NCBI GenBank assembly: GCA_963717935.1
Contig: CAVQXP010000004.1
Location: forward strand, 1,248,001-1,312,000
Length of the DNA stretch: 64,000 nucleotides
Reading direction: 5' to 3'
Source: Candidatus Eiseniibacteriota bacterium
GTDB taxonomy: Bacteria; Eisenbacteria; RBG-16-71-46
Below are positions 27,372 through 46,380 of this stretch, in pieces. The notes under the pieces were generated by a model that saw only the letters and a program-made list of their open reading frames with translations, was not told where the DNA came from and made no database searches. Within the stretch, counting starts at the first letter, position 1; each line of letters begins with the position of its first letter. Position numbers and translations under genes: made by a program.

Positions 27372-28280
27372 TCAGGAGGTGCGAGGCTGGGGCTTCGCCG
27401 CGGGGGCCTTCGGCTTGCGCGCCGGAGCGGCGCGCTGCTCGGCCAGGGAGCGGCGGAACTCCACGGGCACGAGCCTCGGCTCCAGACCCTCGGTCCCGTA
27501 CGCCTCGAGCTCCAGCACCCCTTTCGAGCGGTCCATGATCCTCATGGGGCCCGACTCCTGGGAGCGGCCGGTGAGCCAGGCGCGGCGTGAGATCGAATAG
27601 TCGATTTCCTCGCGCGCGCGGCCCGTGACCGGTATCTGCGGCGTCAGGTAGGTCACGCGCACGTCGCGAACCTCGGTGTACTGGGAGCTGTCGGCGCTCT
27701 GGGCGGTGGAGCTGAGGCCCTGCTCGGTGCGCACCTTGATACAGACGAATTCTCCCAGATCGGTCTTCAGTGTGTCCGTGCCCAGCGTATCCACCAGCGT
27801 GGTGAGGCCCGGGTTGGGCAGCGTGCGGCTCTTCATCGCGGCCGCGCCGCGCCGCATGGTCTGCTGGCGGGGCTGGTTGTTCTCGTCGAGTTCCGAGACC
27901 CGCTTGCGCTGGTAGAGCAGGACGTGGCGTGCGGCCAGAGTGTCATCGAAGATGGCGGAGGACATCAGGGTGGCTGCCGTCTCCAGCGGCCCCTGCGGCC
28001 GCTGGGTCGAGGTCTCGACCCAGAAGCACTCCTCGCCCCACCACTCCTCCTCGCCTGCGATCTGCACGGTCACGGTGTAATCGTCGGTGACACCCATCTC
28101 GCTCTTGCCGGTCATGTGGTATCTGACCCACGATCCCACCTTGACGACCGACCGGCCGTGGGCGTAGTCCAACGTGCCGATGGCGTCGAGGAGTGCGACC
28201 CCCTGCGCGGGCGCGGATCGTGCGGCGAGCACGAAGGACAGTATGGCGAGCAGGGCGACCAGAACGCGGGAACGACTCAT
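27372..28280 (-). CDS. secreted hypothetical protein
   Basis: Signal peptide (..APAQG); host-like codon usage; beta-rich sequence. Confidence 0.75.
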   Translation of the reverse strand: MSRSRVLVALLAILSFVLAARSAPAQGVALLDAIGTLDYAHGRSVVKVGSWVRYHMTGKSEMGVTDDYTVTVQIAGEEEWWGEECFWVETSTQRPQGPLETAATLMSSAIFDDTLAARHVLLYQRKRVSELDENNQPRQQTMRRGAAAMKSRTLPNPGLTTLVDTLGTDTLKTDLGEFVCIKVRTEQGLSSTAQSADSSQYTEVRDVRVTYLTPQIPVTGRAREEIDYSISRRAWLTGRSQESGPMRIMDRSKGVLELEAYGTEGLEPRLVPVEFRRSLAEQRAAPARKPKAPAAKPQPRTS

Positions 28281-28413
28281 GCAAGCGATCTCCGGTGTCG
28301 GGTGATCCGGCGCCCGCGGCTCGGCCGGACTTCACCGGGCTCCCCCCGCAGGCAGGACGACCCCCATTATCCACGACCCGGCCCGGCATCCCAAGCGGGC
28401 CTCCCGGAGACCG

Positions 28414-29118
28414 ATGCCCGCGAGCGATCCCGCCCCGCGCGCCACCCGCGACGGCGGCACGCCTGCGCCGCCCGTACGCAGCCTGCGGCCGCGGGAGAAG
28501 TTGCGCGCCCGCGGTCCGTCCGCGCTGGCCGACGCCGAGTTGCTGGCGCTGGTGCTGGGATCGGGTACGGCCGGGCGCAGCGCGCTGCGCATCGGGCGGC
28601 ATCTGGCGCGTCGCAGCCCGGACGAGTTGGGCGCCTGGTCGAGCGCCCGCTGGCTGCTCGTGCCCGGTGTGGGGCCGGCGCACGCGGCGGCGCTCGTGGC
28701 TGCCTTCGAGCTGGGACGGAGGGCGGCCGAGGGGGCGCCCGGCGGCGCCGCCATCCGCGGCCCCGAGGACGTGCTCGCCCAAGTGCGCGACCTGGCGCGG
28801 GCGCGCAAGGAGCACTTCGTCGTGCTGCTGCTCAACGCGCGGCACGAGATGCAGTGCCGCGAGGTGGTCTCGATCGGCAGCCTCAACGCGTCCATCGTAC
28901 ACCCGCGCGAGGTGTTCCAGCCGGCCATCATGCACTCGGCCGCGGCCGTGGTCCTGGTGCACAACCACCCCAGTGGCGACCCGGAGCCCAGCGAGGAGGA
29001 CCTGAGCATCACGCGGCGGCTCGTGCAGGTGGGGGAGGTGGTCGGGATCGCGGTGCTCGACCACGTCATCGTGGCGATGCGCGGGCTCGTGAGCCTGCGC
29101 GCCCGGCAGTTGCTGTGA
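28414..29118 (+). CDS. radC: RadC/JAB-domain DNA repair family protein
   Basis: RPREKL, LADAELLAL, VHPREVF, HNHPSGDPEPSEED, LDHVIV. Confidence 0.95.
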   Translation: MPASDPAPRATRDGGTPAPPVRSLRPREKLRARGPSALADAELLALVLGSGTAGRSALRIGRHLARRSPDELGAWSSARWLLVPGVGPAHAAALVAAFELGRRAAEGAPGGAAIRGPEDVLAQVRDLARARKEHFVVLLLNARHEMQCREVVSIGSLNASIVHPREVFQPAIMHSAAAVVLVHNHPSGDPEPSEEDLSITRRLVQVGEVVGIAVLDHVIVAMRGLVSLRARQLL

Positions 29119-29182
29119 GGCCGGGGGGGGGGCGCCCCGCAGGGTGCTTGCCGGGCCGCCCGCCGGGGGCCATGCTCCGGCC

Positions 29183-29602
29183 GTGGAGGAAGGTCACAGC
29201 ACGTTCGACCACACCGGCGACCTCGGCCTCGAGGTCTGGGCCCCGCGTGCCGCGCGGCTCTACGCGCTGGCTGCCGAGGTCCTGATGGCGCTGGTCGCGG
29301 ATGCGCGCGGGGCCGCGCCCGAGCTGGAGCGGGTGGTGCGGATCACGGGGGATGACCCCGCCGATCTGCTGGTGCACTGGCTGAACACGGTGCTGCTGGA
29401 GTCCGAGCTGGCGAAGGCCGTGTGGACGCGCGCGGAGGTGCACGTCCTGACGCCGACCGCGCTCGAGGCGACGCTGCGGGGCTCGCGACTGGATCCCGCG
29501 CGCCAGACCTTCCTGCGTGAGATCAAGGCTGTTTCCCACCACGCGCTCGTGCTGGAGCTGAACGAGCCGGCCTGCCGCTGCCGGCTCGTGCTCGACCTCT
29601 GA
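29183..29602 (+). CDS. archease
   Basis: FDHTGDLGL, LLVHWLN, EIKAVSHH, LVLDL; start codon uncertain (29144 or 29183). Confidence 0.9.
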   Translation: MEEGHSTFDHTGDLGLEVWAPRAARLYALAAEVLMALVADARGAAPELERVVRITGDDPADLLVHWLNTVLLESELAKAVWTRAEVHVLTPTALEATLRGSRLDPARQTFLREIKAVSHHALVLELNEPACRCRLVLDL

Positions 29603-29640
29603 ACGGCGCTGCTGCCGGTCGCGCTACTGGCCGCTCGTGA

Positions 29641-30861
29641 TGACGTCGTCCCAGGATTTCGCGGCAGGTCAGAAGTAGAGCATGCTGCCCTCCGGAGGCC
29701 TACCCGGAGGGGGAGCGATGAAGCGGTCGCGGTACACGGAAGAGCAGGTGGCCTACGCGCTGCGCCAGGCTGAAGCGGGCACCCCGGTGGGGGACGTCTG
29801 CCGGCAGCTGGGCATCGCGGAGGCCACGTTCTATGTCTGGAAGAAGAAGTTCGCAGGCCTGGGGGTCGGTGAGCTGCGTAAGGTGCGGCAGCTCGAGGAG
29901 GAGAACGGCCGGCTGAAGCGGGTGGTGGCGGATCTGACGCTGGACAAGCACATCCTGCAGGAGGCGCTCCGAAAAAAGGCCTGAAGCCGACGCGACGCAA
30001 GGCGCTGGCGCACTGGATCCACGAGCGGTTCCAGGTGAACGTCCGGCGGTCGTGTCGGCTGGCGCTGATCCAGCGGGCGAGTTGGTACTACAAGTCGCAG
30101 GCGCAGGACCAGTCGGGGCTCAGGCTGCGGATCCGGGAGATTGCCCAGGCCCGCCCGCGGTTCGGTTACGAGCGGATCCACACGCTGCTGCGTCGGGAGG
30201 GCTGGCAGGTCAACCGGAAGCGGATTCACCGGCTGTACTGCCTGGAGGGGCTGCAGGTGCGGATGCGGGTGCGGCGGCGGAAGCAGATGAGCCTGCACCG
30301 GGGCCCGGTGCCTCGTCCGACGGCAGCGAACGTCCACTGGAGCATGGATTTCGTGCACGACCAACTGGCCGACGGGCGGCCATTTCGGGTGCTGACGGTG
30401 ATCGATCAATGGAGTCGTGAGAGTGTGTTGCTGGAGGCGGGTTCTTCGCTGACTGGGAAGGCGGTCGCGGAAGCGCTGGATCGGGCGTCCTGGAGGCGTC
30501 CCTTGCCCAAGGCGATCACCGTCGATCACGGCACCGAGTTCACCTCCAAGGCGCTGGACCAATGGGCCTGGCAGCGCGGGATCGAGTTGGATTTCATCCG
30601 CCCCGGTAAGCCAATCGAGAACGCGCTGATCGAGTCCTTCAACGGGCGGCTGCGGGACGAATGCCTGAACGTGAACGAGTTCGTTTCGATGGAGGATGTG
30701 CGGCACCGAATCGAGGCCTGGCGGCTCGACTACAATCACCGCCGGCCGCATGGCTCGCTCGGGAACCTGACCCCCAGCGAGTTTGCCGAACAGAGTCAGG
30801 AACGTGCCTCAGGAGGGGCGGCAGTCTAGTTCAGATCTGTCCGAAAACGGGGCCGACCTCA
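29641..30861 (+). mobile_element. IS3-family element (IS407-like), 1221 bp
   Basis: Imperfect IRs TGACGTCGTCCC...GAAGTAGA / TCTAGTTC...GGGGCCGACCTCA; 4-bp target duplication GTGA (29637-29640 and 30862-30865). Confidence 0.95.
29718..30829 (+). CDS. IS3 transposase OrfA (29718-29984) and OrfB, joined by a -1 frameshift
   Basis: MKRSRYTEEQ HTH; WSMDF, DHGTEF, ESFNGRLRDECLN DDE core; A6G slippery site at 29972-29978. Confidence 0.93.
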
Positions 30862-30922
30862 GTGAGCGGCGGAGTCCAGTTATCCTTTGTCTACTTGACG
30901 GGGAAGCTTACGGAGGCATCAC

Positions 30923-31567
30923 GTGTCGGTCATGCTGAGGACCTCGTTGCCGTGGGTGCTCGTGGGCGCGCTGGCGTGCGCGGGCGCGTGTTCGTCCGGG
31001 GACGGCGCGGCGCCCGCACCGACCAGGAGCTTTTCGGAGGTCTTCTTGAGCGTCGACGCATGGAGCGAAGCGCGCGTCATGACGCTGGTCATCGATGGAG
31101 CCGGCCGTCGGACCGGATGGAATAAGGGGGAACAGTTCCGGGAAATCGTGGGATGTGGACTGGGCTTCGGGACCGAAGAGGGCATTCCGAACCCCGAGGG
31201 GGAGCCGGACGACACGTCTGCGACCACCCCGCCGGAGCCTCTTCCAGGAGATGCAGCCGTCGACACCGTGTCCGGTGAGCGGGAACCGACGCCAAGGTAC
31301 TACTACTTCCACATCTCTAACGATGCGGTTACCCCGGTTGGTCTCATCGACCAAGGTGGATGCGAGCTGCGGTTGGATCCCACAGCGGCTGGCAAGGTGC
31401 AGCTTGGGCTCAGCGCGAAGAAGGGGGTATTCATTCTGTGCGAGGACACGACATCGGTCTGGGTAAGGCCCGGGGTGCCGTTGCGCTGGCGGCTGAGCTG
31501 GAAGGCTCAGAGAGACAGATGCGTTGTGAGGATCTCCAAGCTGCCGGCAAGATCTCCCAAGCGCTGA
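30923..31567 (+). CDS. putative lipoprotein A, paralog of 36389-37003
   Basis: GGAGG RBS; lipobox-like ALAC/AGAC; shares IDxxGRRTGWN, EPTPxYYY, GGCELRL, CxDTTS, WxLSW with the paralog. Confidence 0.75.
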   Translation: MSVMLRTSLPWVLVGALACAGACSSGDGAAPAPTRSFSEVFLSVDAWSEARVMTLVIDGAGRRTGWNKGEQFREIVGCGLGFGTEEGIPNPEGEPDDTSATTPPEPLPGDAAVDTVSGEREPTPRYYYFHISNDAVTPVGLIDQGGCELRLDPTAAGKVQLGLSAKKGVFILCEDTTSVWVRPGVPLRWRLSWKAQRDRCVVRISKLPARSPKR

Positions 31568-31663
31568 GCGGCACGCAGTCGCCCCCGTTGATCTCGTTTG
31601 GAGGCAAGCGCCGCGATTGACATTGGTCGGAGGTCCAGCACCGATTCCAATTCTCCATCCGTA

Positions 31664-32140
31664 TCAGCCTCCAATCGTCGTGAACCGCCTCCCCTCGTAC
31701 GCGCGGTGCTGCAACGCCTCGGCCAACGCGCGCACGCTGACGCACTCCTCGCTGGTGAGATCCGCGATCGTGCGCGCCACGCGCATCGCGCGGTGAACCG
31801 CGCGTGCGGACATCCCGCCGCGATCCACCGCATCGGCGACGAGCCGGCGCCCGGCCTGATCGAGCGCGCAGCACTCGTCGAGCCGCGCAGGGGGCAGGAG
31901 TGCGTTCAGGCATCCGCGCTCGCGCTGGCGCGCCCGCGCCGCGAGCACGCGCGCCCTCACGACCGCGCTCGACTCGCCCAAGGATGCCGCCTGCAGCTCG
32001 CGCGACATCAGCGCCGGCACCTCGACCTGGAGATCGATCCGGTCCAGCACCGGTCCGCTCACCCGCGCGTGGTGCTGCGCGAGATCGGTCGGCGTGCACT
32101 TGCAGCCCCGGCGTGGATGTCCGAGCCAGCCGCACTTGCA
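31664..32140 (-). pseudogene. comM: displaced 3' third of comM (YifB), starting at CKCGWLG, without start codon
   Basis: Collinear with 37063-37536; 16 differences in about 147 aligned aa; homology stops abruptly at 32140. Confidence 0.92.
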
Positions 32141-32148
32141 CCGTTGCG

Positions 32149-32580
32149 TTGCCTTTCTGCAATCTCCGCCTTGTTGGCCGCCGACCTCGTGTGTTCCCAA
32201 GGGGTTACCCGCAGGCGCCCCGGTCGCTCGGGGAGCGCATACGCCAGCGACGGATGGACCTGGGGCTGACGCAACGAACCCTTGCCGAGCGGCAGGGCTG
32301 CTGGCCGGAGACGGTCGCGGCGTGGGAAAGGGGCGAGAGCGAGCCACTGGCCCGGCGGTGGCCAGCGATCGAGGCGGTCCTCGGAACGGGGCTCGTCCTG
32401 GAATGGGGCGGCCTCCCGGGGCGGGTCCGGGCCGCCCGGCTCCGGCTGGGACTCACGCAGGAGCAGGTCGCTGCCCGTACCGGGCTCGATCCTCGGACGG
32501 TTCGGAACGTCGAGACCGGGCGGCATGGGCCGAGCCGGAGGACTGCCGAGCGGTTGGCGGCGGTCCTCGGCACACTGTGA
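32149..32580 (+). CDS. tandem XRE/HTH_3 transcriptional regulator
   Basis: Two XRE repeats: SLGERIRQRRMDLGLTQ..WERGESEP and RVRAARLRLGLTQEQVA..VETGRHGP; start uncertain (TTG 32149 or GTG 32191). Confidence 0.8.
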   Translation: MPFCNLRLVGRRPRVFPRGYPQAPRSLGERIRQRRMDLGLTQRTLAERQGCWPETVAAWERGESEPLARRWPAIEAVLGTGLVLEWGGLPGRVRAARLRLGLTQEQVAARTGLDPRTVRNVETGRHGPSRRTAERLAAVLGTL

Positions 32581-35006
32581 GCCCCAGCCCGCCAATGAGG
32601 GCGGGACGAGCGTTGCGGCTCGGCTTCGCCGCCCGGAAACTTCCCTTGCCCGCCGTCTGCCATGGGGGTGTACTGTGCAACGGACGCACGCCCCGCCGCG
32701 GAAACAAGGACTGCTGACCACCGGACCTCATCTCCGACTCTCTGGCACGGCGGGATCGTGGGGGCCGCCGGCGGGACTCGACTCGCTAATCGAAATGAGT
32801 GCGCAAGCGCCCGCTGGCTTGTTGGCGTGCGGAATCACACGTGTTCTGACGATGGGAGGCCCACCCATGACAATCAGACTGGCTGTCTTGGTGCTGGTGT
32901 TCGCCGCGTTCCATCCCTTGCCCGTGGTGGCGCGAACTCCGACCAACGATGCGGCCGCCTTCCGCACCTTTGATCTTTACTCGGACCGCGCCGGGGCGGT
33001 AGGGACTCTGGATCACCTCAACTTCTCCTCCTCCTACCCTTCCTACCTGATCAGTCCCGCCTACATGGTGATCCACACGGTCGGAGGCGTTCCCGATACG
33101 GTTGCGCTCCTTCACCTGCAGCCGAACGATGCCACGGGGATGGAGGTGAACGGGAGTACCCCGACGTCCTACGCCGAGTACGCGGTGGTACCGCCAATAC
33201 TCGCCACCTCCATCAGCGTCAGCGTCAACGCCGATGTCGTCTTCGCGGGGCTCGGTCAGTACTACGACTTCCTGAAGCCCCTGGCCACGATCACGGTCAC
33301 CTACGAAGACGCTTCGACGTGGATGGACACGTTGCGCGTGGGCCAACACATCAGGACCTGGCTGAGCGGGAGCATCACCTGTTTGGGGGATCTCTGGTAC
33401 ACCTACAACACGCCGCCGTTCGACCAGTACGCGGTCCCTCTGTATGCCAGCGGGGGCGTGTTCATGGACATGCAAGAGGTCCGGCTCCCGCACGTGCCCA
33501 AGAAGATAGCCCTGATCCGAGTGCAAGCCATCGCGCTCGACCACTTCTGCAGCATCTACAATCCGCACCTCTACGCTGGCTACCATCTCCACGCTGTCTC
33601 GATCTGGCCGACGTTCAACGTCGCAAACGCCTCGTCGCAGCCTGTCGTGTGGCAGTCCCAGTTCACGAACGTGGACCACGGCGGCTACATGTTCGGCGGC
33701 ATCCCCGTCGGCACCCGACGACTGATGAACCAGACCGCGTGTCAGGTCGCATCCCAGGCGATGTGCTACACGTACAGTGGCTTCAATTGCACGCCGACAG
33801 CTCTCAACACGTATCTTCAGCAGAATAGAGGCTACGTGCCAGATCAAGTGGCCATCGTGACGTCCGTCGCACCGGGCGGAGCCTCGATTCGCTATACGGC
33901 TACAGGAAAGACAACTCTGAAGGTCGGCGACAGATTCCTCGTTGAGCACGGCACCTACACGAACCCGCTCGCAACGTACCAGGTGACGGTCGCGGGTCGC
34001 CTTGGCCAAGCATCTCGCGTCGCAACCCACAACGCGGCTGTTCCCTCGGGCGACGATCCCGGTCGTGTGTACTGGAAGATGAAGCCTCGGGTTGCCGACG
34101 GGTTCACCAGCAGCCCACAGCTTCGCTCGATTGACCTCTACGACTCGCCGCAGCTTGCTGCTCAGGTCGAGAGCCTGCTCGTGCGGGACATCGCGGTGCA
34201 ACTGAACGTGCCCGACCACTTCGTCGTCGCGTCGGGCTGGACCTCGTCGTTCCGCCCGGATGGCAGCGCACGAGGGACCTACGCGATCAAGGACCCCTTC
34301 GACGACAGGGACTACACCAAGCTCATCGAAGGGAAGTACGCCAACAAGTTCGCGATGGCCCGCTACGTTGTCCCGACTGGCGCGCTGGAGGTGGCGGGCA
34401 GTGTCGCGGCGCTGAGTGACCCCCCGGGGCTTGGCATCCTCGCCAGTGGCGCTCGCCGCGTCGAGGTCATCGACCCGCTCGGCCGACACATGCTGCGCGA
34501 CGCCAGTACGGGGGAAGGCATCTACGAGATTCCGGACGCCTGCATCGAGGACGTCTCCTCAGAGCACGACAACGGCGGGGACGTGGACGACCCGCTGACC
34601 GGCTACGACATTGAGATTCCGACGACGGTCGATGGGCACTACACGGTGACCGCGTACTCAGACGACGGCCTCTCGCTGAGCGCGAACGGCTACACGTCGT
34701 CGGGCATCTTCGCTTCGGACGGCGCCGTGGACACGACTGCGGCGCCCGTGGGCAATATCTACGACGTGCTCTACTCGGGGTCGGGGCAATCGGTCTCGGT
34801 AAGCCACACCGCCACGCTTGGCGTGAACATCACGTCGCCCCTGTTCGGCCCGAGCCGTCTGCGGGTGCGCCAGAGCCCTGCTACGGGTCCCGTGGAGTTC
34901 GTCATCATTGCCGCGGAGATGACCGCAGACGTCATCGACGTGTTCGACGTTAGTGGTCGCCGTGTGGACGCGGTGCAGGTGGACGGCGGCACAGGCACGC
35001 GGACGA

Positions 35007-36278
35007 TGCTTTGACCCCCAGTTCAGCGAGACACCTCCGCAGGGTACCATTGAGGTCCTGGGAGGGCAGTCATGGAGAACGTGGCCAAGGGTTCCGATGG
35101 GCGCCGACTGTTCACCGCCGAGTTCAAGCGCACGCAGATCGATCGGATCTTGAAGGGGGAGATCACCGCCGCGGAGCTGAGTCGTGAGCTCGGCGTGGCG
35201 CGCACGCTGATCCAGCGCTGGAAGTACTTGGTTACCAAGGGGGCGGAGGCCGCGGTGGGCTCGAACGGCGAGGTCGTCGCCGTGGCCGAGCTGCGGGCGG
35301 CGCAGGGGCGGATCAAGGAACTCGAGCGGCTGGTGGGTAAACAGGCCATGGAGTTGGAGATCCTGCGCGTGGCGCGCGACGAGGTAAAAAAAAGACCGCG
35401 CTACTACGGCGTGTCCGCGAAGCGACCGGAGGGTCGGTCGCGATGATCTGCCGCACGCTGCACATCGGCCGCGCGACGGCCTACCGCAAGGATCGCCCGC
35501 GACCTCGGCGCTATCGCCGGCAGGAGGACGAAGTGGTGCTGGCCCAACTGCGGCAGATGCTACGCGAGCGCGCCAGCTACGGCTATCGCCGCGCCCGCCG
35601 GATCGTCAATCGCCAGTTCGGCACCACCTACAACCGCAAGCGGATCCAGCGGGTGATGCGCCTCTATGGCCTGGCACTGCCGGTCCGGGGTCGCCGTCGC
35701 CGCGGGCGCCGGCACGAGGGCCAGGTCGAGTGCGTGATCTCGAACCAGCGGTGGTGCTCGGACGTGCTGGAGATCGCGTGCTGGAACGGCGAGGTCGTGC
35801 ACCTGGCGTTCGCGCTCGACTGCTGCGACCGCGAGGTCCCGGCCCACGTCGCGACGCCGTACCCGACGTCGGGGATCGAGATCCGCCGGCTGATCCGCAA
35901 GACCGTCTTCGCGCGCTACGGGAACGAGAAGCCCGCGGTGCCGATCGAGTGGCTCACCGACAATGAGGGGATCTACACCGCACTCGAGACGGTGATCGAG
36001 GCCGAGCGGCACCACCTGGCGCCGATCACGACGCCGGTGGCGAGCCCGGAATCCAACGGCATGGCCGAGGCGTTCGTGAACACCTTCAAGCGCGACTACG
36101 TGGCAGGTGGCGACTTGGCCTCGGCGGCACGCGTGCTGGAGCAGATCCCTGGCTGGATCGAAGACTACAACACCTTCGCGCCGCACTCCTCGCTCGGGAT
36201 GCTGTCCCCGGCCGAGTTCCGACTCGAACAGCAGACAGTTGCAGACACCGGGTGTCTCACGAAATAGGGGTCAAAGCA
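35007..36278 (+). mobile_element. IS3-family element (IS2-like), 1272 bp
   Basis: IRs TGCTTTGACCCC..GAGACACC at both ends; target duplication ACGA (35003-35006 and 36279-36282); precise excision restores the host reading frame. Confidence 0.95.
35072..36267 (+). CDS. IS transposase OrfA (35072-35446) and OrfB (35443-36267), probable -1 frameshift
   Basis: RRLFTAEFK HTH; SNQRWCSD, WLTDN, ESNGMAEAFVNTFKRDY; A8G at 35386-35394. Confidence 0.93.
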
Positions 36279-36388
36279 ACGATCACATGGGACTGGCGCA
36301 CAATCGGCACCCGCTCTGGCGTCTACCTCGCCCGGCTGCGCTCTCGGGCCAACGAGACGGCTCGGTTCGTCATCCTCCGTTGACGAAC

Positions 36389-37003
36389 ATGAAGCGAGCG
36401 TTCTACGGGGTAGTGGCCTGCGTGGTCCTGGGCGTGGGAGCATGCGCGTTGCGCTCCAGCGCGCCCTCCAGCACTTCCGGGAAGTTCTTGCAGGTGCTCG
36501 TGAGCATCTACGCCTTCGGTGATGCGCGTGTGGGTGCTGTGCTCATCGACCGCGAGGGCCGCCGAACGGGCTGGAACGTTGATCGACCGATCCGGCAGAT
36601 ACCGGGAGTGTTGAACGGGTACGGCTCCGACGTGGGCATTACTGACGAGAGCACGCCGGCGGATACGACGGAACCACCCCCCGCTGACACGGTACCCGGA
36701 CATCCCGAGCCGACGCCCATTTACTACTACCTCTCGATTCAGGATTCAGCAGGAACACCCGGCCTGCTCCGGGAGGGCGGGTGTGAGCTCCGCCTCGTCC
36801 CCGTTGCGGGAGGTCGCGTCAGCCTCGCGATTACCGGGACGGGGGCCGGATTCAGCCCGTGCCAAGACACGACCTCGTTCACGGTCACACCTGGCGTCCC
36901 CACGCGATGGTGGCTGAGTTGGAGCAAGAGTGGGAACAAGTGCGTCGTGGACCTCTCCAGAATGAACCGGAGCAGGCCGCGACCTCAGTCGCGCGTCAGG
37001 TAG
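36389..37003 (+). CDS. putative lipoprotein B, co-transcribed with the C39-like gene
   Basis: Starts 5 bp after the restored stop of the C39-like gene; MKR..VGAC lipobox-like; paralog of 30923-31567. Confidence 0.8.
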   Translation: MKRAFYGVVACVVLGVGACALRSSAPSSTSGKFLQVLVSIYAFGDARVGAVLIDREGRRTGWNVDRPIRQIPGVLNGYGSDVGITDESTPADTTEPPPADTVPGHPEPTPIYYYLSIQDSAGTPGLLREGGCELRLVPVAGGRVSLAITGTGAGFSPCQDTTSFTVTPGVPTRWWLSWSKSGNKCVVDLSRMNRSRPRPQSRVR

Positions 37004-37062
37004 CATCTTTGGGCTTGCGCTTCGCGCAGGCAATGAACGAAAGCCGTGTGTTGCGGGGCTGA

Positions 37063-38577
37063 TTACCGGGCTGCGGCATGCCACCTTACTTCGGTTGCCC
37101 GGTACTGCAACGCCTCCGCCAACGCGCGCACGCTGATGCGCTCCTCGCCTGCCAAGTCCGCGATCGTGCGCGCCACGCGCGTCGCGCGGTGCACGGCCCG
37201 GGCGCTCATCCCGCCGCGGTCCACGGCGTCGGCGACGAGCCGGCGCCCGACCTGATCCAGCGCGCAGCACTCCTCGAGCCGAGCGGGCGGCAGGAGCGCG
37301 TTCAGGCAACCGCGCTCACGCTGATGCGCCCGCGCCGCAAGCACGCGCGCGCGTACCACTGCGCTCGACTCGCCCGGCATCGCCGCCTGCAGCTCGCGTG
37401 ACGTGAGCGCCGGCACCTCAATCTGAATATCAATCCGATCCAACACTGGCCCACTAACTCGCGCGTGATGTTGTGCTATATCAGTCGGAGTGCAGCGGCA
37501 GCCGCGTCGCGGATGCCCGAGCCAGCCGCACTTGCAGGGATTCATCGCCGCCACGAGCAGTGCGCGGGCGGGGAACTCGCTGGCGCCGCTGGCGCGGACG
37601 ATGGTGACCGTGCCGTTCTCGAGCGGCTGGCGCAGGGCGTCGAGCAGGCCGCGCGCGAACTCCGACAACTCGTCGAGGAAGAGCACGCCGTGGTGGGCGA
37701 GCGAGATCTCGCCGGGGCGCGGCGGGGAGCCGCCGCCCACCAGGCCCGCGGGCGAGACCGTGTGGTGCGGTGCGCGGTAGGGGCGGCGCGTCATGAGTCC
37801 CCGCCCGGGGCGGCGCAGCCCGGCGGCGGAGTGCAGGCGCGTGACCACCAGCGCCTCGTCGGGCTCGAGCGGCGGGAGGATGCCGGGCAGGCGCCTGGCG
37901 AGCATGGACTTGCCCGCGCCGGGCGGGCCGATGTAGAGCAGGTGGTGCCCGCCGGCAGCGGCGATCTCGAGCGCCCGGCGCGCCACGGCCTGCCCGCGCA
38001 CCTCGCCGAGGTCCTCGCTCGTGGCGGGCTCCGGGTCCGGCGGCGCCGGGGCCTGGCGGGGCGACTCCGCGCCGCGCAGCCACTCGACCGCCTCGTGCAG
38101 GGTGCCCACGGCGTGCACGACGAGGCCCTCGACGAGCGCGGCCTCCGGGGCGCAGGCGGAGGCGCACAGCAGGCTCGTTACGCCCGCGCGCCACAGCGCC
38201 TCGGCCAGGGGCAGGGTGCCCCGCACGCCGCGCAGGCGGCCGTCGAGCGCGATCTCGCCCAGCGCGGCCGCGTCTTCGAGACGCTCGCGCGGGGCCTGGC
38301 CGGTGGCGACCAGCACGCCGAGGGCGACGGCGAGGTCGGCCGAGGCGCCTTCCTTGCGGCGCTCGGCGGGCGCGAGGTTCACGGTGACCTTGCGGTCGGG
38401 GAGCTGGAAGCCCGCGTTGCGCAGCGCGGGCCAGACCCGGTCGCGCGCCTCGCGGCCGGTGGCGTCGGGGAGCCCGACGAGGACGAAGCCGGGCAGGCCG
38501 GGCCCGACATCCACCTCGCACTCGACCGGGAGCGCCTCCAGGCCCCAGAGGGCGGCCGTCCGCACGCGGCTCAGCAT
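37063..38577 (-). CDS. comM: ComM/YifB Mg-chelatase-like AAA+ ATPase (intact)
   Basis: VGLPD, VNLAPA, GPPGAGKSMLARRL, RAPHHT, GVLFLDEL, AMNPCKCG, SGPVLDRID. Confidence 0.95.
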   Translation of the reverse strand: MLSRVRTAALWGLEALPVECEVDVGPGLPGFVLVGLPDATGREARDRVWPALRNAGFQLPDRKVTVNLAPAERRKEGASADLAVALGVLVATGQAPRERLEDAAALGEIALDGRLRGVRGTLPLAEALWRAGVTSLLCASACAPEAALVEGLVVHAVGTLHEAVEWLRGAESPRQAPAPPDPEPATSEDLGEVRGQAVARRALEIAAAGGHHLLYIGPPGAGKSMLARRLPGILPPLEPDEALVVTRLHSAAGLRRPGRGLMTRRPYRAPHHTVSPAGLVGGGSPPRPGEISLAHHGVLFLDELSEFARGLLDALRQPLENGTVTIVRASGASEFPARALLVAAMNPCKCGWLGHPRRGCRCTPTDIAQHHARVSGPVLDRIDIQIEVPALTSRELQAAMPGESSAVVRARVLAARAHQRERGCLNALLPPARLEECCALDQVGRRLVADAVDRGGMSARAVHRATRVARTIADLAGEERISVRALAEALQYRATEVRWHAAAR

Positions 38578-38640
38578 GGGCCTGCTCCCGGGGAGGCGGG
38601 TCGCGGGGGTGACGCCCGGAGCAACGCAAGCACCGCGCCA
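38440..38640. repeat. 201-bp direct repeat, copy 1 (comM codons 1-46 plus 63 bp upstream)
   Basis: Matches 42811-43011 except one base (38632 A vs 43003 G). Confidence 0.95.
38625..38640 (-). promoter_or_regulatory. sigma54-type -24/-12 promoter of comM
   Basis: Minus strand TGGCGC-GGTGC-TTGCG with exact GG-N10-GC spacing, about 50 bp upstream of the ATG; also present in copy 2 (42996-43011). Confidence 0.6.
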
Positions 38641-38868
38641 ACCCCAGGAACGCAACGGGCTCTCAATCCCGCGCGCCGGTTCGACCCTCCAGCGTGAGCT
38701 ACAGCACGCTCCGGGGCCACGCAGACCCTCGCGGCCAGGACCAGCCTCTCGATAAGCCACGCCCCCAAAAATACCCAATGGTCGACCTCTTCTTCGGATT
38801 GCCCCGAGGACAATCACGCAGTGCTTGCGGTAGCAGGGCTCGGCCGGGCACGTGCGTATATCTTTCCC

Positions 38869-38896
38869 TTGACACTGACCTGGCGAGGAATATCTT
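38869..38896 (+). promoter_or_regulatory. sigma70-type promoter for the S8 protease gene
   Basis: TTGACA-N16-TATCTT. Confidence 0.5.
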
Positions 38897-39183
38897 CCGC
38901 ACAGGTTCTCAGGGGAACCCAAAGCAAGGGTTCACGTGACCTTGCCTAGGAGGGTTGTGATTGGTGCAACGCCTCTCTCGATTCGTGAGGCAACCGAATC
39001 GCTCCATAGTTCCAGACTACATTCTAACTGAGCGGCAGAACGCACCTCGTGACACGCGACTCACCCGTCTCCTGTCCATTCATCGTCCAATGGAGGAAGG
39101 ATGAGGAAGTAGCATGGGCCGCATCATGACCACACTACCCGGAAGTTTTCTGCGTCTCAGCAAGCCGCCCTGTGGAGGGTTCT

Positions 39184-41943
39184 ATGCGCTGGTACACAGT
39201 AGTGCTTCTCCTGGGATGTTGTGGCGTGGCATACGCAGGAGACAACCAAACGGGCCAAGCATGTCTGAGTTGGTCCGCAGAAGGCGTGGTCACAAGGGAC
39301 GACGCTGCTCCTCAAGCGCTATTCCCGGTCTTCGTACACGTTGACGGCGCTCCAAGCATCAGCGGTCTCTCTGTATGTCTCCGCTGGAACCCAAGCTCGT
39401 ACGTGTTGGTGAATCCACCGGCGGATTGGAAGGCTGATGTCGGATACAACGTTAATGTGGCTCCGCACGCCACGTTCGCAGACGACGCCGCATTTGACGC
39501 GACAATTGTCTTTCCAGCCCCTCCTGGCGATCACGCAGTCGTAGCCTATTGGTTCCGATATGCGGCCACGGGGGCACCGCCCCCTGCCACGTTCTGCCTC
39601 GCTCAAGTCAAGGCAATGGATGGCGCTGGCGCAATCGATGATCTCGCGCTGCTTGATGGATTGAGTCTGGGCGGCCGCGCCGTGACTGACGGGTGTCCGC
39701 CGACTCCTTCGCACATTGCCAGGGGAAAGCTGCTCGTGCTGATGCGTGCGGAGGCTCTCAGCTCAGGGAGTGACCAGGAGCTAGCGTCCCCTGAGCAACT
39801 GTTGGCTTCTCGCGGAGCAGCAGACTCCCTTGCCGCCGCCGGGGTGCTTGCCATGGTGCGGATCTCCCCGGTGGGCCTGAGCGGCGGCACGTGTTCGCGC
39901 AATCTGATCGGTGAACCGATTGTGCTGCCTGACCCCGGCGCGGTCTACGTGGCCCATCTGCGTCCTGACGTTCTGGCGAAACGTGCCGCATTCGCGCTCT
40001 CGGACGTTAGCGCCGTCAGATCCGCACGACCAATTCCCCTCGTGCAACTCTACCACACGCCACAGGATCCTATGTTCAGCCGGCAATGGGCGCTCAGCAA
40101 CACGTCCCAGACCTATGGCTGTACGCTTCCTGCCTTCAATGCGAACACAGATATTCATCTGCCTGCTGCACTGGACATGACGGTCGCTCGTGGAGCTGGG
40201 GTGCGCGTCGGGGTATTGGACTCAGGGGTTCAAAGTGACCACCCGGAGCTTATAGGTCGCGTTGAGGCAGGTCACAACGCCATAGCACACTCATATGGGT
40301 TGGACTGGGCGACTGAAGACAGCACGTCGCACGGCACGGCGGTGGCCGGCATCATCGCGGCTGCAAGTGACAACGGCATTGGTATAGCTGGCATCGCGGA
40401 TGCCGCGACGATCGTGCCAATCCGCCTTAACTCCGGATACTACTTTCCGCTGGAGGTTGGGACCAGTTGCATGTCTGACTTCCCCAGCTTCCCGCTAGAT
40501 GCTGCGCTAGACGGGTTATGGTGGGCGACTGATTCTACGTCGACGATACCGATTCTCAACATGTCGTGGGGCACCGTAGCTCCGGAGGAGTACACTCCCT
40601 ATCTTGCGACGGCCTGCCTTGCGGGACTGTTGAAGGGGCAGTTTCTGGTTGCGGCATCTGGAAACGACAACTGGGGCCATCCCGACTGGGTTCCGGCACC
40701 AGCCAGGTACGCGAAGCGGGTGTTTTCGGTCGGGGCGGTCTTCGGTAATGGTCTGCGATGGGATGACCGAGTGCTCCCCCAGCCGCTAGGTGGCTGGGGA
40801 ATGTTCAGCGCGTTGTCAAGCTGGGTGTTGGGCTACCCGGTCCCCATCGGCTCGAACTGGGGCCCTCACCTAACTGCCGTGGCCCCTGGCGGACACATGA
40901 TCGCTGCGCTGCGTATGTACACCTTGGTCGACTCGCTCTATCGCTGGAAATACATTTTCGACTGCGCCCACAAGTATTTCGAAGTTGACTCGTGTGGCGT
41001 GAGTTATGCAGACATGGACTCCGTGGAATTCGGTGGGACATCTGCGGCGGCGCCAACCGTTGCGGGTGTGGCCGCTCTGATACTCGGAGAGCATCTAGGG
41101 GCCTTGGTGGGCGAGGACATAACCCAAACACTTATCCGGACGGCGGTGGATCCGATCACTGGCGCTCCAAGCAGTGGGAGAAGCGACACGTTAGGGGCAG
41201 GGATGATCCGTGCCGACCGGGCACTGGCCTTTCTCGCTTCCCCGAAAATCATCGATCATCCCCGTGCCACCAGCCTCGCTGTTGCGGACGTAGACACGGT
41301 ACAGGTCAGCTTCACAGGAGGCACGCCCGGGATTCCTGATGGCCAGTACGATGCTGTTAGGTATCGCCTGGCCGGTCGCGCAGCGTTCTCTCAAGCGTTG
41401 TACGCAGATACTGGGTCGACATGGGTGCGGGCATCAGGAACTCAAGGCATGCTGGATGTCTCTACGTACAACTACTTGGCGGATGTGCCGTTTGGGCGAA
41501 TCACGTCCATAGACACATTGGGCGTTGACGTGGAGACCTTTGTCTACCAGGTCTTGAGTGGTGGCAACGTGCTCGCGTGGTATCCGTGCGACACCGCGTC
41601 AGCCGCGGTGGCAACGACTGCTGTCGGGTATCCCCCCGCCGTAGCGGGAGTGGGTGTAGAGCCTGCGCTTCGCTTTGGAATCACGGTTTCCCCTACCCCA
41701 ACCCGAGGACGGGCAGTGCTGAGCCTCCTCTGCCCGGGGCCGGCAATTGTCGAGGCAGGTATCTACGACGTGCAGGGGCGGGTTGTGCGTCACCTTGGTC
41801 GTCGGTCAGTGGCAGGAGGAACTGTGCAGTATGTCTGGGACGGTCGGCGAGATGACGGTGGATATGCAGCGGACGGCGTGTACTATGCGCGCGGGATCGC
41901 CAATGCTCAGTCGAAGGTCGTAAGGGTTGTCTTACTCAGATGA
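39184..41943 (+). CDS. secreted S8 (subtilisin-like) serine protease with C-terminal FlgD-Ig/CTD-like domain
   Basis: Signal peptide; triad VLDSG, SHGTAVAG, GGTSAAAP; oxyanion ASGN; tail IYDVQGRVVR..WDGR..GVYY..VVLLR. Confidence 0.92.
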   Translation: MRWYTVVLLLGCCGVAYAGDNQTGQACLSWSAEGVVTRDDAAPQALFPVFVHVDGAPSISGLSVCLRWNPSSYVLVNPPADWKADVGYNVNVAPHATFADDAAFDATIVFPAPPGDHAVVAYWFRYAATGAPPPATFCLAQVKAMDGAGAIDDLALLDGLSLGGRAVTDGCPPTPSHIARGKLLVLMRAEALSSGSDQELASPEQLLASRGAADSLAAAGVLAMVRISPVGLSGGTCSRNLIGEPIVLPDPGAVYVAHLRPDVLAKRAAFALSDVSAVRSARPIPLVQLYHTPQDPMFSRQWALSNTSQTYGCTLPAFNANTDIHLPAALDMTVARGAGVRVGVLDSGVQSDHPELIGRVEAGHNAIAHSYGLDWATEDSTSHGTAVAGIIAAASDNGIGIAGIADAATIVPIRLNSGYYFPLEVGTSCMSDFPSFPLDAALDGLWWATDSTSTIPILNMSWGTVAPEEYTPYLATACLAGLLKGQFLVAASGNDNWGHPDWVPAPARYAKRVFSVGAVFGNGLRWDDRVLPQPLGGWGMFSALSSWVLGYPVPIGSNWGPHLTAVAPGGHMIAALRMYTLVDSLYRWKYIFDCAHKYFEVDSCGVSYADMDSVEFGGTSAAAPTVAGVAALILGEHLGALVGEDITQTLIRTAVDPITGAPSSGRSDTLGAGMIRADRALAFLASPKIIDHPRATSLAVADVDTVQVSFTGGTPGIPDGQYDAVRYRLAGRAAFSQALYADTGSTWVRASGTQGMLDVSTYNYLADVPFGRITSIDTLGVDVETFVYQVLSGGNVLAWYPCDTASAAVATTAVGYPPAVAGVGVEPALRFGITVSPTPTRGRAVLSLLCPGPAIVEAGIYDVQGRVVRHLGRRSVAGGTVQYVWDGRRDDGGYAADGVYYARGIANAQSKVVRVVLLR

Positions 41944-42144
41944 TAGCCGAGCTATCACATGCCCGATCGATGGCGTCGGACGGTTGAGGACTCACCCACG
42001 GCCACCCGGACGAGGGACGTGCTCGGGGCGTTTCGTCTATTGACGCGATGGGATCTTTGGCGCATGCTTGTTGTGGCCGGGACAGGGGCAACCTGTCGTC
42101 ACTTGCCTCTGAAATCGGTCGGAGGCAATTGTTCGGGAGGAACC

Positions 42145-42744
42145 GTGAAGACGCTCATCGCCATTCTTGTCCTCGCGATGGTGGGTTTAGTGCCCCCGAT
42201 CGCCCGAGCGACGGCCGCTGACAGCTGCGGATATGCATATGCGGACGACTTCACCACGAACGCCGTAGAGGTCGACAGCTACTCGCATACAAAGATTGAG
42301 GAGAGCTTCTGCTTTACGTGTGGAAGTGGATGGCTCATGTTTGCCACCGATTCGACCGGGAACCGCGGCCTTGGCTTCTATCCTGGCCTGCTATACGGCT
42401 CGCAGAACGCCTATGTGACGTACCGATTTCCGCAGGACGGCATCGCAGGAGGGATGGTCGGCAGTCTGGCATTCGACGCTCTGTGCTATGTCGGTCTTAC
42501 TGGGGATGGTGGGTTTGCTTGGGCCGATGTAGTCGTCCTCTATGACGACGTGTACGCAGCAACGGCGCACATCTCAGAACCTGGCCACTACAGGTTCGAA
42601 CTAGCACCGCCCCTGACGGCGTCGAAGGTGTACCTCCACATCACTGGTCAGCTGTTCCGGTTGGACAATCTGTCCGTATGCTTGGACGTCTCGACGCCAA
42701 CCCGCACCACGACGTGGGGAAGGCTCAAAGCGTTCTACCGTTGA
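42145..42744 (+). CDS. secreted protein with C-terminal PTRTTTWGRLKAFYR motif
   Basis: GGGAGG RBS before GTG; signal peptide; characteristic terminal motif. Confidence 0.8.
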   Translation: MKTLIAILVLAMVGLVPPIARATAADSCGYAYADDFTTNAVEVDSYSHTKIEESFCFTCGSGWLMFATDSTGNRGLGFYPGLLYGSQNAYVTYRFPQDGIAGGMVGSLAFDALCYVGLTGDGGFAWADVVVLYDDVYAATAHISEPGHYRFELAPPLTASKVYLHITGQLFRLDNLSVCLDVSTPTRTTTWGRLKAFYR

Positions 42745-42810
42745 CGGTAATCAGCCAACACTCTTGCGGGCCGGTCCTCTTGGATTGGTCCGCATCGTCT
42801 TGTATCCTAA

Positions 42811-42948
42811 GTCGCGCGCCTCGCGGCCGGTGGCGTCGGGGAGCCCGACGAGGACGAAGCCGGGCAGGCCGGGCCCGACATCCACCTCGCACTCGACCGG
42901 GAGCGCCTCCAGGCCCCAGAGGGCGGCCGTCCGCACGCGGCTCAGCAT
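42811..42948 (-). pseudogene. comM: truncated comM 5' fragment (46 codons, MLSRV..REARD) running into cassette sequence and stopping at 42751
   Basis: Identical to the first 138 bp of intact comM. Confidence 0.92.
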
Positions 42949-43011
42949 GGGCCTGCTCCCGGGGAGGCGGGTCGCGGGGGTGACGCCCGGAGCAACGCAA
43001 GCGCCGCGCCA
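42811..43011. repeat. 201-bp direct repeat, copy 2
   Basis: See 38440-38640. Confidence 0.95.
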
Positions 43012-43143
43012 GCTTGCGGTCAGGCCGGCGGGGGCGGGGCGGCCGCTGAGCTCCGGAGCCTCTGCAGGCCCGGGCGCCGCGGCCATCTGCCACTGCCCGG
43101 GCCGATGCCCGCCGGGGACGCTGCGGCAGCACTCGATTTGCGC

Positions 43144-43170
43144 TCAACCTCCTGGGCTGCTGGTCGATAA
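43144..43170 (+). promoter_or_regulatory. sigma28 (FliA/WhiG)-like promoter
   Basis: TCAA-N15-GTCGATAA, 27 bp before the kinase ORF. Confidence 0.6.
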
Positions 43171-43197
43171 CCCACTCCTGGACGCCCACCACCGGGA

Positions 43198-45534: not shown

Positions 45535-45556
45535 GGCGTCCGGTCTCCTCCGTGTG

Positions 45557-45602
45557 AACGAGTGTGCGCCCGCCCCGGGTGGGGGGCGGGCGCACACTCG
45601 TT
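45557..45602. terminator. perfect 20-bp inverted repeat between convergent genes
   Basis: AACGAGTGTGCGCCCGCCCC-GGGTGG-GGGGCGGGCGCACACTCGTT. Confidence 0.75.
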
Positions 45603-45621
45603 GGGCGCGTGTTCCCGGCGG

Positions 45622-46227
45622 TCAGCGCGTGCTGCCGGGCAGGGTCGCGCCGGGTGCCGCGAGGACCAGGGCGGTCGAGACCAGCCGCGCGTAGCCGCCC
45701 TCGGGCACGCCCGTGCGGTCGAAGCCGCGGACGCGGCCCGAGCGGTCCACCACGAACCACGCGGGCGCGGCGTGACGCGTCGCGGGGTCGAGCGCGCTGA
45801 ACTGCGTGGCGATGATGTTCCGCGAGTCGGGGATGAGCGTGAAGTGCAGGCCGAGCCGGCGGGCCAGACTCGCGACCCCTGTCGCGCTCCGGTCCAACAC
45901 GGCAGCCGGCACCACGCGCAGGTCGAGCAGGCGGTCCCGGTCGCGCTCGAGCGCCAGCAATTGCGCTTCGGTCGGCGAGAACACGAGCAGCACGTGGCCC
46001 TGCGCCCTCAGGTCGCGCAGCCGCTGTGGACGCGAGCCCGGGCCGTCCCAGGCCACGTCGGGCGCCGAGTCGCCGGTCGTCACGACCAGGACGGGTGGCT
46101 CGACCCCGGTCGATGCGAGCGTGACAGGCACGTGCGACGTCTCGACGTTGGTGGGGATGTGGACCTGCGGGGTCGAGGCGACCAGAACGAAACAGGTCGC
46201 GGCGACGACGGCGGGGGAGAGTCTCAA
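45622..46227 (-). CDS. secreted redoxin/AhpC-fold protein lacking catalytic Cys
   Basis: GDSAPDV..RLRDLR..VLLVFS; FTLIPD; PAWFVVDRSGRVR. Confidence 0.7.
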   Translation of the reverse strand: MRLSPAVVAATCFVLVASTPQVHIPTNVETSHVPVTLASTGVEPPVLVVTTGDSAPDVAWDGPGSRPQRLRDLRAQGHVLLVFSPTEAQLLALERDRDRLLDLRVVPAAVLDRSATGVASLARRLGLHFTLIPDSRNIIATQFSALDPATRHAAPAWFVVDRSGRVRGFDRTGVPEGGYARLVSTALVLAAPGATLPGSTR

Positions 46228-46275
46228 GTGGGCCTCCGGGCGTGCGTGGTGGCAGGAACGACGAACCGCCCAGAG

Positions 46276-46303
46276 TCATCGGCAGGGAGACGGACGGACT
46301 TGA
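46276..46303 (-). promoter_or_regulatory. sigma28 (FliA/WhiG)-like promoter
   Basis: Minus strand TCAA-N16-GCCGATGA about 50 bp upstream of the redoxin-like ORF. Confidence 0.6.
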
Positions 46304-46380
46304 GCCCGCCCGCCTCCCTGCCGCCTGCAAACGCACGGACGCGCGCCCGCCTTCGAGGGAGGCGCCGCCTCGCCCGGGCC

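Follow-up and report, generated by a model that had tools for sequence, protein, structure and literature searches.

Introduction

Staphylococcal cassette chromosome (SCC) and pseudo-SCC elements, which Ccr large serine recombinases move into the 3' end of rlmH (orfX) in staphylococci, recreate a usable site upon insertion, so that units stack in tandem, and recombinase-less units are found beside recombinase-bearing ones. In Escherichia coli, e14 and phage 21 carry a substitute 3' end for their target icd, which stays functional, and an orphan end is left behind. Here we analyze a related arrangement in 64,000 nucleotides of the genome of a Candidatus Eiseniibacteriota bacterium (assembly GCA_963717935.1, contig CAVQXP010000004.1, positions 1,248,001 to 1,312,000), a stretch referred to below as the window and to which coordinates refer. 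A cassette of 5396 bp (cassette 1, 32141–37536) lies in comM; it supplies the last third of the working gene, and the displaced 3' end is present as an orphan on its far side.

Two further groups of elements are relevant to the comparison. In Dehalococcoides, islands with a CcrB-like serine recombinase stand in tandem downstream of a single-copy gene, ssrA, and are bounded by repeats of the 3' end of that gene, with a conserved short motif on the island side of each repeat; some, devoid of an integration module, have been proposed as cis-mobilizable (McMurdie et al. 2011, PMC3146451). The cis-mobilizable elements (CIMEs) are described for the tyrosine-integrase families of integrative and conjugative elements and integrative mobilizable elements, and arise by decay (review from the Guedon group, PMC5704250). 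With regard to the target, 12.4% of the large serine recombinases predicted to be site-specific have a Mg-chelatase/ComM homologue as their site (Durrant et al. 2022, PMC10083194), and the Wolbachia Mg-chelatase gene is the integration site of phage WO sr1WO (PMC9203015).

Results

A chimeric comM gene and its displaced 3' end

The working comM gene (37063–38577, minus strand) encodes 504 amino acids, matches the Pfam families ChlI, Mg_chelatase and Mg_chelatase_C across its full length, and is 92% identical to the gene of a relative of the same genus (G004). Its last part occurs twice in the window. Segments 31701–32140 and 37097–37536 are 83.9% identical over 441 columns (blastn, E = 3e-133) and, in a repeat search of the window, are spaced 5396 bp apart in direct orientation; chance is far from sufficient to produce such a repeat. 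From the Cys codon onward, the copies differ at 16 of 147 residues and 74 of 441 bases, with no indel in the MAFFT alignment, and the edge of homology is the first base of the Cys348 codon (AAMNP/CKCGWLG). This is in agreement with the original prediction, made from the sequence of the window, which described collinear copies without indels that differ at 16 of about 147 residues and part at NP/CKCG.

The same prediction placed an exact 20-bp core at the junction, and this part of it needs qualification. The 20-mer, CCGAGCCAGCCGCACTTGCA, is present at 32121 and 37517 and at no other site on either strand of the window, however, further exact runs of 19, 21 and 24 nt lie inside the repeat, 24 nt being the longest identical tract, so that the position of the core at the homology edge is special and its length is not. 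Likewise, both copies were said to remain open, and both are indeed free of stops up to differing C-termini (ending in HRAYEGRRFTTIGG and YRATEVRWHAAAR), but the orphan is open only in this sense, as the first 347 codons and the comM start are missing from it.

The orphan 3' end, comprising codon 348 to the stop and displaced by the cassette, occupies 31664–32140 (minus strand) and retains a Pfam Mg_chelatase_C match. The replacement 3' end (copy B) likewise runs from Cys348 through the stop codon, at 37063–37536 (minus strand), and its G+C content at third codon positions (GC3) is 0.80 against 0.97 in the 5' part. Within 37063–38577, codons 1–347 are resident and codons 348–504 are supplied by the cassette; ComM is here a chimera with a foreign last third. 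The proposal of a cassette-borne replacement C-terminus is borne out, the 3' end being in frame with the resident 5' part: a substitute end restores the target and an orphan end is left, with the break at one specific codon of a conserved gene.

Two junctions of the site-specific-recombination type flank the cassette. At 37517–37536 the resident 5' part meets the cassette 3' end in a sequence with the layout of an intact bacterial attachment site (attB), i.e., B arm, TG and comM arm, and this sequence is the same as that in the uninterrupted genes of relatives (L003, L004 and L006). At 32121–32161, comM sequence is joined instead to an element-side arm (P arm, 32141–32161), which on the comM strand reads TGCAGAAAGGCAACGCAACGG followed by TG, and whose 16-nt form occurs once in the 3.0-Mb genome. 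From the phage-type attachment site (attP) dyad of relatives described below, the crossover dinucleotide would be the TG at 37535–37536 on the minus strand. The G+C content of the window is 72% and dips to 0.60–0.68 at 30–37 kb and at 39–43 kb.

Recurrence of the junction in relatives and in other phyla

We searched 41 genomes, namely the source genome and 40 relatives (labeled G000 to G040; L numbers denote individual loci or contigs). comM was found in 39 of them, and separate comM pieces starting at residues 341–346 are present in at least eight (G000, G004, G005, G010, G021, G022, G027 and G040); several contigs break at about residue 347–350 of comM. When the loci were fetched and searched by tblastn, nine comM fragments in eight loci were placed at 344–348. 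The cassette side of the orphan junctions carries a conserved arm, GGCAACGC-N5-TG, and a form ending in AAAGGCAACGC-N5-TG is common to the junctions of G000, G004, G021, G010 (two loci), G022 and G027, in each of which a divergent gene for an XRE-family protein with two helix-turn-helix (HTH) domains starts in the arm. The attL/attR-like geometry of the original prediction is thus upheld by a recurring Cys348 junction and a conserved element-side arm beside the orphan.

In the window the XRE gene (32149–32580, plus strand, 143 amino acids) likewise starts inside the P arm. Its two HTH domains are recognized by NCBIfam, and its homologues match Pfam HTH_3/HTH_31; it is 63–80% identical to the proteins at the loci of four relatives and is the sole such gene in the source genome. 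It is also the one gene common to all cassettes of this kind. A scan with an XRE alignment, restricted to one genome per species, gave 64 loci, the upper 33 of which (L051–L083) were examined; in most of these the match spans most of the protein. A GCGTTGCC-like motif lies at the XRE start in 25 of the 33 (loose pattern), and 14 adjoin a comM 3' fragment beginning at residues 330–348, with another comM piece in the fetched DNA of seven. In 13 of 15 junctions (the window and these 14) the architecture is strictly that of the reverse complement of Cys-x-Cys followed by N5 and GCGTT(G/C)CC, i.e., CA-N5-GCGTT(G/C)CC, and the remaining two hold a close variant. The loci that share this one spacing include ones from Verrucomicrobia, Elusimicrobia and Sediminibacterium. 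The closest XRE loci are from metagenome-assembled genomes (MAGs) labeled Candidatus Eisenbacteria; others are labeled Verrucomicrobia, Elusimicrobia and Spartobacteria, and one is from a cultured organism, Sediminibacterium goheungense DSM 28323 (L072).

comM ends are stacked two or three deep in G010, L060 and L071. Stacked copies are 74–93% identical in six of seven other loci, which rules out a homologous crossover for most of them. In a Verrucomicrobiaceae MAG (L081, 9444–11957) the XRE gene alone lies between an orphan comM end and a full comM, the two ends being 74% identical; the gene is kept even in a cassette that holds nothing else.

Recombinase-bearing relatives and the attachment site

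The same XRE arm is one end of a recombinase-bearing element in G022 and G027, where comM is truly split. On one contig of each genome a large serine recombinase gene meets the comM 5' part at the same codon, in convergent orientation, and on another contig the XRE arm is joined to the comM 3' part, beyond which the G022 contig continues with ordinary chromosomal genes. The G022 recombinase has 572 amino acids with Resolvase and Recombinase domains, and the G027 copy is 68% identical to it; their best scores are against CcrB, CcrC and XisF, all below the curated cut-offs. Joining the non-comM halves rebuilds an attP that reads GGCAACGC-N5-TG-N5-GCGTTGCC in G022 and ends in CCGTTGCC in G027. 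The second arm is (G/C)CGTTGCC across the two genomes, and in the site inverted repeats of 8 bp stand five bases to either side of a central TG. Judged by its sequence, this dyad has the layout of a serine-recombinase site, and its TG corresponds to the T-G of the Cys348 codon. In the window, the element arm is present at the matching spacing on the orphan side only, and the other arm is comM-like.

On this evidence we consider it probable, if well short of certain, that cassette 1 is a recombinase-less cassette which a site-specific event of the large-serine-recombinase type brought into comM, at the TG of Cys348. The attachment site of the cassette would be a hybrid, with an element-type arm (GGCAACGC-N5-TG) beside the XRE gene and a comM-like arm that runs on for 157 codons to the stop and thus forms a complete replacement 3' end. 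Insertion would keep comM in frame and working, would recreate an attB-like site at the new junction, where further cassettes could stack, and would push the previous 3' end downstream, where it would be fused to the element arm and slowly decay. Since the second arm is itself comM sequence, the junction between the resident 5' part and the cassette is indistinguishable from an uninterrupted attB, and the regeneration of attB by the replacement end would explain the stacked copies seen elsewhere.

The recombinase would have to act in trans. A domain scan of 14 open reading frames across 27372–42744 detected no recombinase in the cassette besides the transposase of an insertion sequence (IS), and no Resolvase, Recombinase or zinc ribbon domain in any of the 14 frames; cassette 1 therefore differs from a large-serine-recombinase element in encoding no such recombinase, and no tyrosine integrase stands beside the attachment site. 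The single serine recombinase of the source genome is about 540 kb distant and about 27% identical to the comM-associated ones, and its two tyrosine recombinases (PF00589) are both on contig C1, the window being on C4. No cognate recombinase was found in the source genome, and the cassette is probably stranded there. In contigs from four of 14 public sequencing runs (best share 0.34), where cover is thin and patchy, there was no joint skipping 32141–37536 and no circle junction.

Separate histories of the two comM ends

Between the two copies the synonymous divergence (dS) is 0.64 and the ratio of non-synonymous to synonymous divergence (dN/dS) is 0.12, and these values indicate that each end evolved within a functional gene of its own lineage and that the divergence did not follow a local duplication. 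The resident 5' part has a GC3 of 0.97, the orphan one of 0.89 and the replacement one of 0.80. A tree of the 5' part places the window as sister to G004 (support 99/97; 91% nucleotide identity), whereas in the 3' tree neither window copy joins G004; both fall, unresolved, in a 99/99 clade of same-genus sequences and orphans of another genus, in which the replacement end pairs weakly with an orphan of G010 (83/86). The discordance between the trees indicates repeated exchange of the 3' end in this group. Neither the trees nor tables of 3' identity, which when ungapped are unreliable for distant genomes where indels occur, single out a native copy.

The simplest account of the repeat, an old tandem duplication of the comM 3' region followed by divergence, would fit the direct orientation and 5396-bp spacing of the repeats and the homology of the lipoprotein genes next to them. 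The original prediction had proposed that it would be betrayed by a dN/dS near 1 and by a lack of relatives with the same junction; the ratio is 0.12, and at least eight of the 41 genomes have the junction. Divergence is also uneven along the supposed duplicate, with the comM ends at 84% nucleotide identity, the lipoproteins at 41% amino-acid identity and the IS elements at 25% and of different kinds, and the G+C content of the cassette is lower. The same break point with a conserved foreign arm recurs in other phyla, and this recurrence refutes a simple old tandem duplication, to which we give next to no credence.

The orphan is drifting under relaxed constraint. Ten working genes are invariant at 73 columns, where the orphan has five changes and the replacement none, which argues that it is not maintained as a usable allele. 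This bears on the suggestion, also made in the original prediction, that excision and reintegration of the cassette serve as a reversible, regulated switch between two ComM C-termini. Such a switch would be served by the present junctions, which form a compatible pair from which precise excision would rejoin the orphan in frame, and by two ends that both read open. It would nevertheless need a recombinase, of which none was found in cis and no cognate in the genome, and besides the changes in the orphan an IS lies within the cargo; the orphans of relatives, split by an IS in G004 and in multiple stacked copies in G010 and L071, fit accumulation and not switching. We consider the switch very improbable. 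As a side observation, the IS that splits the G004 orphan belongs to the IS3 family (L031, 7659–9346), and a second, inverted copy of it (1236 bp, 99.8% identical) lies within the G004 cassette.

Contents and flanks of cassette 1

Reading from the orphan junction on the plus strand, the cassette holds the XRE gene, a gene for a secreted protein, an IS3-family element (IS B) and a lipoprotein gene, followed by the convergent comM end; genes for integration and transfer are absent. The cargo protein (32858–35014, 718 amino acids) has a signal-peptide-like N-terminus and no Pfam or NCBIfam family at E 0.01, with noise alone at E 5. Its partner, lipoprotein B (36389–37003), has a signal peptide and a lipobox. 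Homologues of the secreted protein (61–63% identity) are directly followed by homologues of the lipoprotein (52–55%) on three metagenome contigs (L136–L138), and the same pair is cut by the contig end on L135; neither comM nor XRE was found on the available DNA of L135–L138. The pair also adjoins comM in G028, a member of a different family, with 67% and 71% identity; G028 has no XRE gene, however, and copy B shares no more than 43% identity with the G028 comM 3' end. As the cargo alone is shared, a horizontal transfer of the entire cassette to that family was rejected. Occurring both away from comM and beside a divergent comM, the secreted-protein/lipoprotein pair is a movable two-gene module. 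The cargo of other cassettes again consists of secreted proteins, with FlgD_ig or Por_Secre_tail ends.

IS B (35003–36278, plus strand; orfA 35072–35446, orfB 35443–36267) matches Pfam HTH_Tnp_1, rve and rve_3 and has ordinary inverted repeats with a 5-bp flanking target repeat, ACGAT. In contigs of two public runs 35002 is joined directly to 36279, skipping 1276 bp, and the better of these joints is free of mismatches. IS B therefore entered the cargo late and recently and is polymorphic, an empty-site allele being present intact, and it shortens the secreted protein from 749 amino acids in the IS-less allele to 718. On the other side of the orphan lie lipoprotein A (30932–31567, plus strand), a homologue of lipoprotein B with 41% identity (tblastx, tblastn), and an unrelated IS3-family element, IS A (29682–30829, plus strand; orfA 29682–29984, orfB 30035–30829, identified by Pfam), the orfB of which is 25% identical to that of IS B. 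IS A sits between lipoprotein A and an archease gene, and the latter opens a flank that is syntenic with G004 (82.6–86.9% nucleotide identity). The IS3 transposases were considered as the mover of the cassette and rejected, the two elements being unrelated and IS B having its own ordinary ends and target repeat. Nor do they form a composite transposon: IS B is inside and IS A outside the cassette, their orfB proteins are 25% identical, and IS B is missing in some contigs.

The presence of two IS3-family elements in the region lends some appeal to decay in place, in which a complete serine-recombinase element with its own comM 3' end inserted and its recombinase module was later deleted, perhaps with the aid of an IS. 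Decay of integrated elements to recombinase-less remnants is the standard route to CIMEs (PMC5704250), and in G005 an XRE cassette adjoins the start of a resolvase-domain gene. Yet none of the elements seen combines a recombinase with a comM 3' end; the complete elements of G022 and G027 split comM and have a second arm of the element type, and IS B, given its intact empty-site allele, deleted nothing. Furthermore, 32 of the 33 XRE loci, from several phyla and including L081, have no recombinase in the available DNA, and that many independent losses are unlikely. We regard decay in place as an unlikely origin of the cassette.

Evidence that weighs against entry by site-specific recombination

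Several points weigh against the entry in trans favored here, most directly the reaction itself. To our knowledge, canonical large serine recombinases recombine attP with attB only. The site of the cassette, with one element arm and one comM arm, is attR-like, and no reaction between such a site and attB is known. Versions of the cassette with both a recombinase and a comM 3' end were not found, and a serine recombinase lies within about 10 kb in just one of the 33 XRE loci, in a tblastn search with three diverse recombinase queries that may have missed distant or other recombinases. A recombinase of the G022 type (at least 61% identity) is present in three of the 41 genomes (G022, G027 and G014) and was not found in the carriers G000, G004, G010 and G021, some of whose assemblies are incomplete; the helper recombinase is therefore hypothetical for those four.

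The neighbors of the two comM ends are also alike. Lipoproteins A and B share 41% identity, and in S. goheungense the duplicated stretch (L072, 8717–9971 and 13071–14325; 1255 bp, 97.3% identical) includes a 203-aa gene downstream of comM (98% amino-acid identity; weak Y1_Tnp match), with additional short tandem repeats at its far end. Like neighbors look like capture of a chromosomal flank, and in Sediminibacterium a homologous route fits. A general form of such a route would be an origin resembling specialized transduction: an element with a recombinase at one end and XRE at the other would have been inserted once in a donor comM, aberrant excision would have yielded a circle with the XRE gene, the arm, the comM 3' end and downstream genes, and the circle would have entered by a single, Campbell-type homologous crossover in the comM 3' end, the sharp Cys348 edge being inherited from the donor. 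Such an origin would account for the fixed end at Cys348 and the variable far end of the repeat (441 nt here, 583–750 nt in L071, 1255 nt in L072), for the homologous genes beside both copies, and, without recourse to a non-canonical reaction, for the absence of a recombinase. Against it, the copies are 16% diverged here and 23–26% diverged in L052, L060 and L081, and with no identical tract above 24 nt in the window they are too diverged for a RecA-type crossover; the dN/dS of 0.12 also speaks against divergence after a duplication. The XRE gene is always the sole element gene retained, which would not be expected from random aberrant excision, and the occurrence of the secreted-protein/lipoprotein pair away from comM marks it as cargo, not as comM flank. 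We hold this origin to be as unlikely as decay in place.

A last difficulty for site-specific entry comes from three XRE loci (L055, 8090–8127; L062, 1–35; L069, 9960–10001) in which the XRE arm is preceded not by an orphan but by a sequence nearly identical to the comM 5'-side arm (ending in GCGGCAATGAATCCTCA). In L055 and L069 the cassette's own comM fragment also retains a short piece of the comM 5'-side arm, and in L062 there is no comM piece in the available DNA. Inversion and wrong-orientation products were considered for these loci, and none fits the overhang rule of serine recombinases; the arrangement fits no simple recombination product.

If the hybrid site is nevertheless a usable substrate, a more general proposal follows, which we put forward tentatively and regard as possible but doubtful. 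The arm, the two-HTH XRE gene, the cargo and a full comM 3' end would together define an undescribed, cross-phylum class of recombinase-less cassettes that parasitize comM-specific serine recombinases, with the XRE protein allowing the recombinase to accept an otherwise forbidden pair of sites. With a hybrid site, insertion and excision would be the same kind of reaction and attB would be regenerated each time, leading to an integron-like stacking of cargo behind comM.

A second cassette at the comM 5' end and further observations

The other end of comM is also associated with a cassette. A 201-bp direct repeat with one mismatch (38440–38640 and 42811–43011), spanning 63 nt of upstream sequence and comM codons 1–46, encloses an interval of 4.2 kb with about 60% GC (38641–42810), which encodes a subtilase with a FlgD_ig end (39172–41943) and a protein of 261 amino acids without a family match; a comM 5' fragment is left as an orphan at 42811–42948. 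The core of the cassette 1 XRE arm, the 10-mer CCGTTGCGTT, occurs at 38649–38658, 9 nt outside the 201-bp repeat and pointing toward comM, and has six copies in the genome versus four for a reversed control. Its position beside the second cassette may link both cassettes to one system. Upstream of the orphan 5' fragment, about 3.3 kb (43011–46375) with a 788-aa open reading frame (43171–45534) is without an equivalent in the G004 interval from comM to the AhpC-like gene, and both flanks are syntenic at 85–87%.

In G010, two cassettes running from XRE to a comM 3' end are located away from comM (L038, contig G010:C146, 12–8838; L037, contig G010:C2, 644–8565). One G010 cassette has a full FIST gene on one side and, on the other, a second FIST_C fragment with the start of a thiolase gene behind it; another is flanked by a full thiolase gene and an AbiEii gene. 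The comM gene of G021 (L032, G021:C1, 5844–7628) matches residues 1–109 and then 97–477, with about 316 nt between the matches, which suggests a small insertion or duplication near codon 100.

Discussion

Large serine recombinases target comM more often than any other gene, and insertions in it are usually read as gene disruption. The cassettes described here present an alternative outcome, in which an imported end repairs the gene, the landing site is recreated and cargo accumulates without a recombinase of its own, the cargo being here secreted and surface proteins of uncultivated Eisenbacteria-like bacteria. Taken by itself, the window carries a more modest message, namely a chimeric ComM and a second copy that is no switch but a decaying remnant. 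Should the hybrid site prove to be a real substrate, the presumed abilities of large serine recombinases would be extended, and the cultured carrier S. goheungense DSM 28323 (L072) makes this question testable.

The described systems nearest to cassette 1 are the SCC and pseudo-SCC elements of rlmH, the ssrA islands of Dehalococcoides and the CIMEs. SCC elements resemble cassette 1 in inserting at the end of a conserved housekeeping gene with the frame kept, and the recombinase of the complete relatives scores best, below cut-off, against CcrB/CcrC. They differ in that SCC replaces the last few codons and cassette 1 replaces 157 codons (about 470 nt), in the target, rlmH as opposed to comM, in the conserved two-HTH XRE gene at the arm here, and in that there is no recombinase in cassette 1 and no cognate was found elsewhere in the genome. 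The likeness to the Dehalococcoides islands lies in gene-end repeats, tandem units, an island-side motif and units without an integration module; however, the repeat there is 20 bp of an RNA gene and here a 441-nt protein-coding end that diverged under purifying selection, and most islands there keep a six-gene integration module (PMC3146451), whereas XRE is the sole conserved gene here.

CIMEs share the recombinase-less unit, the att-type junctions at the 3' end of a target gene and the tandem arrays (PMC5704250), but the arm, XRE gene and replacement end seen here look like a defined, cross-phylum unit with sites of the serine-recombinase type. The comM-targeting large-serine-recombinase elements have the target family in common with cassette 1, and the complete relatives analyzed here have the attP dyad; those elements split the gene (PMC10083194, PMC9203015), as do the elements of G022 and G027, and cassette 1 restores it and has no recombinase. 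e14 and phage 21 differ in having a tyrosine integrase in cis and in being single elements, whereas cassette 1 has no integrase and its kind stacks elsewhere. The cassettes at comM differ from these known systems in how long a coding end is replaced, in a backbone of XRE alone and in their distribution over several phyla.

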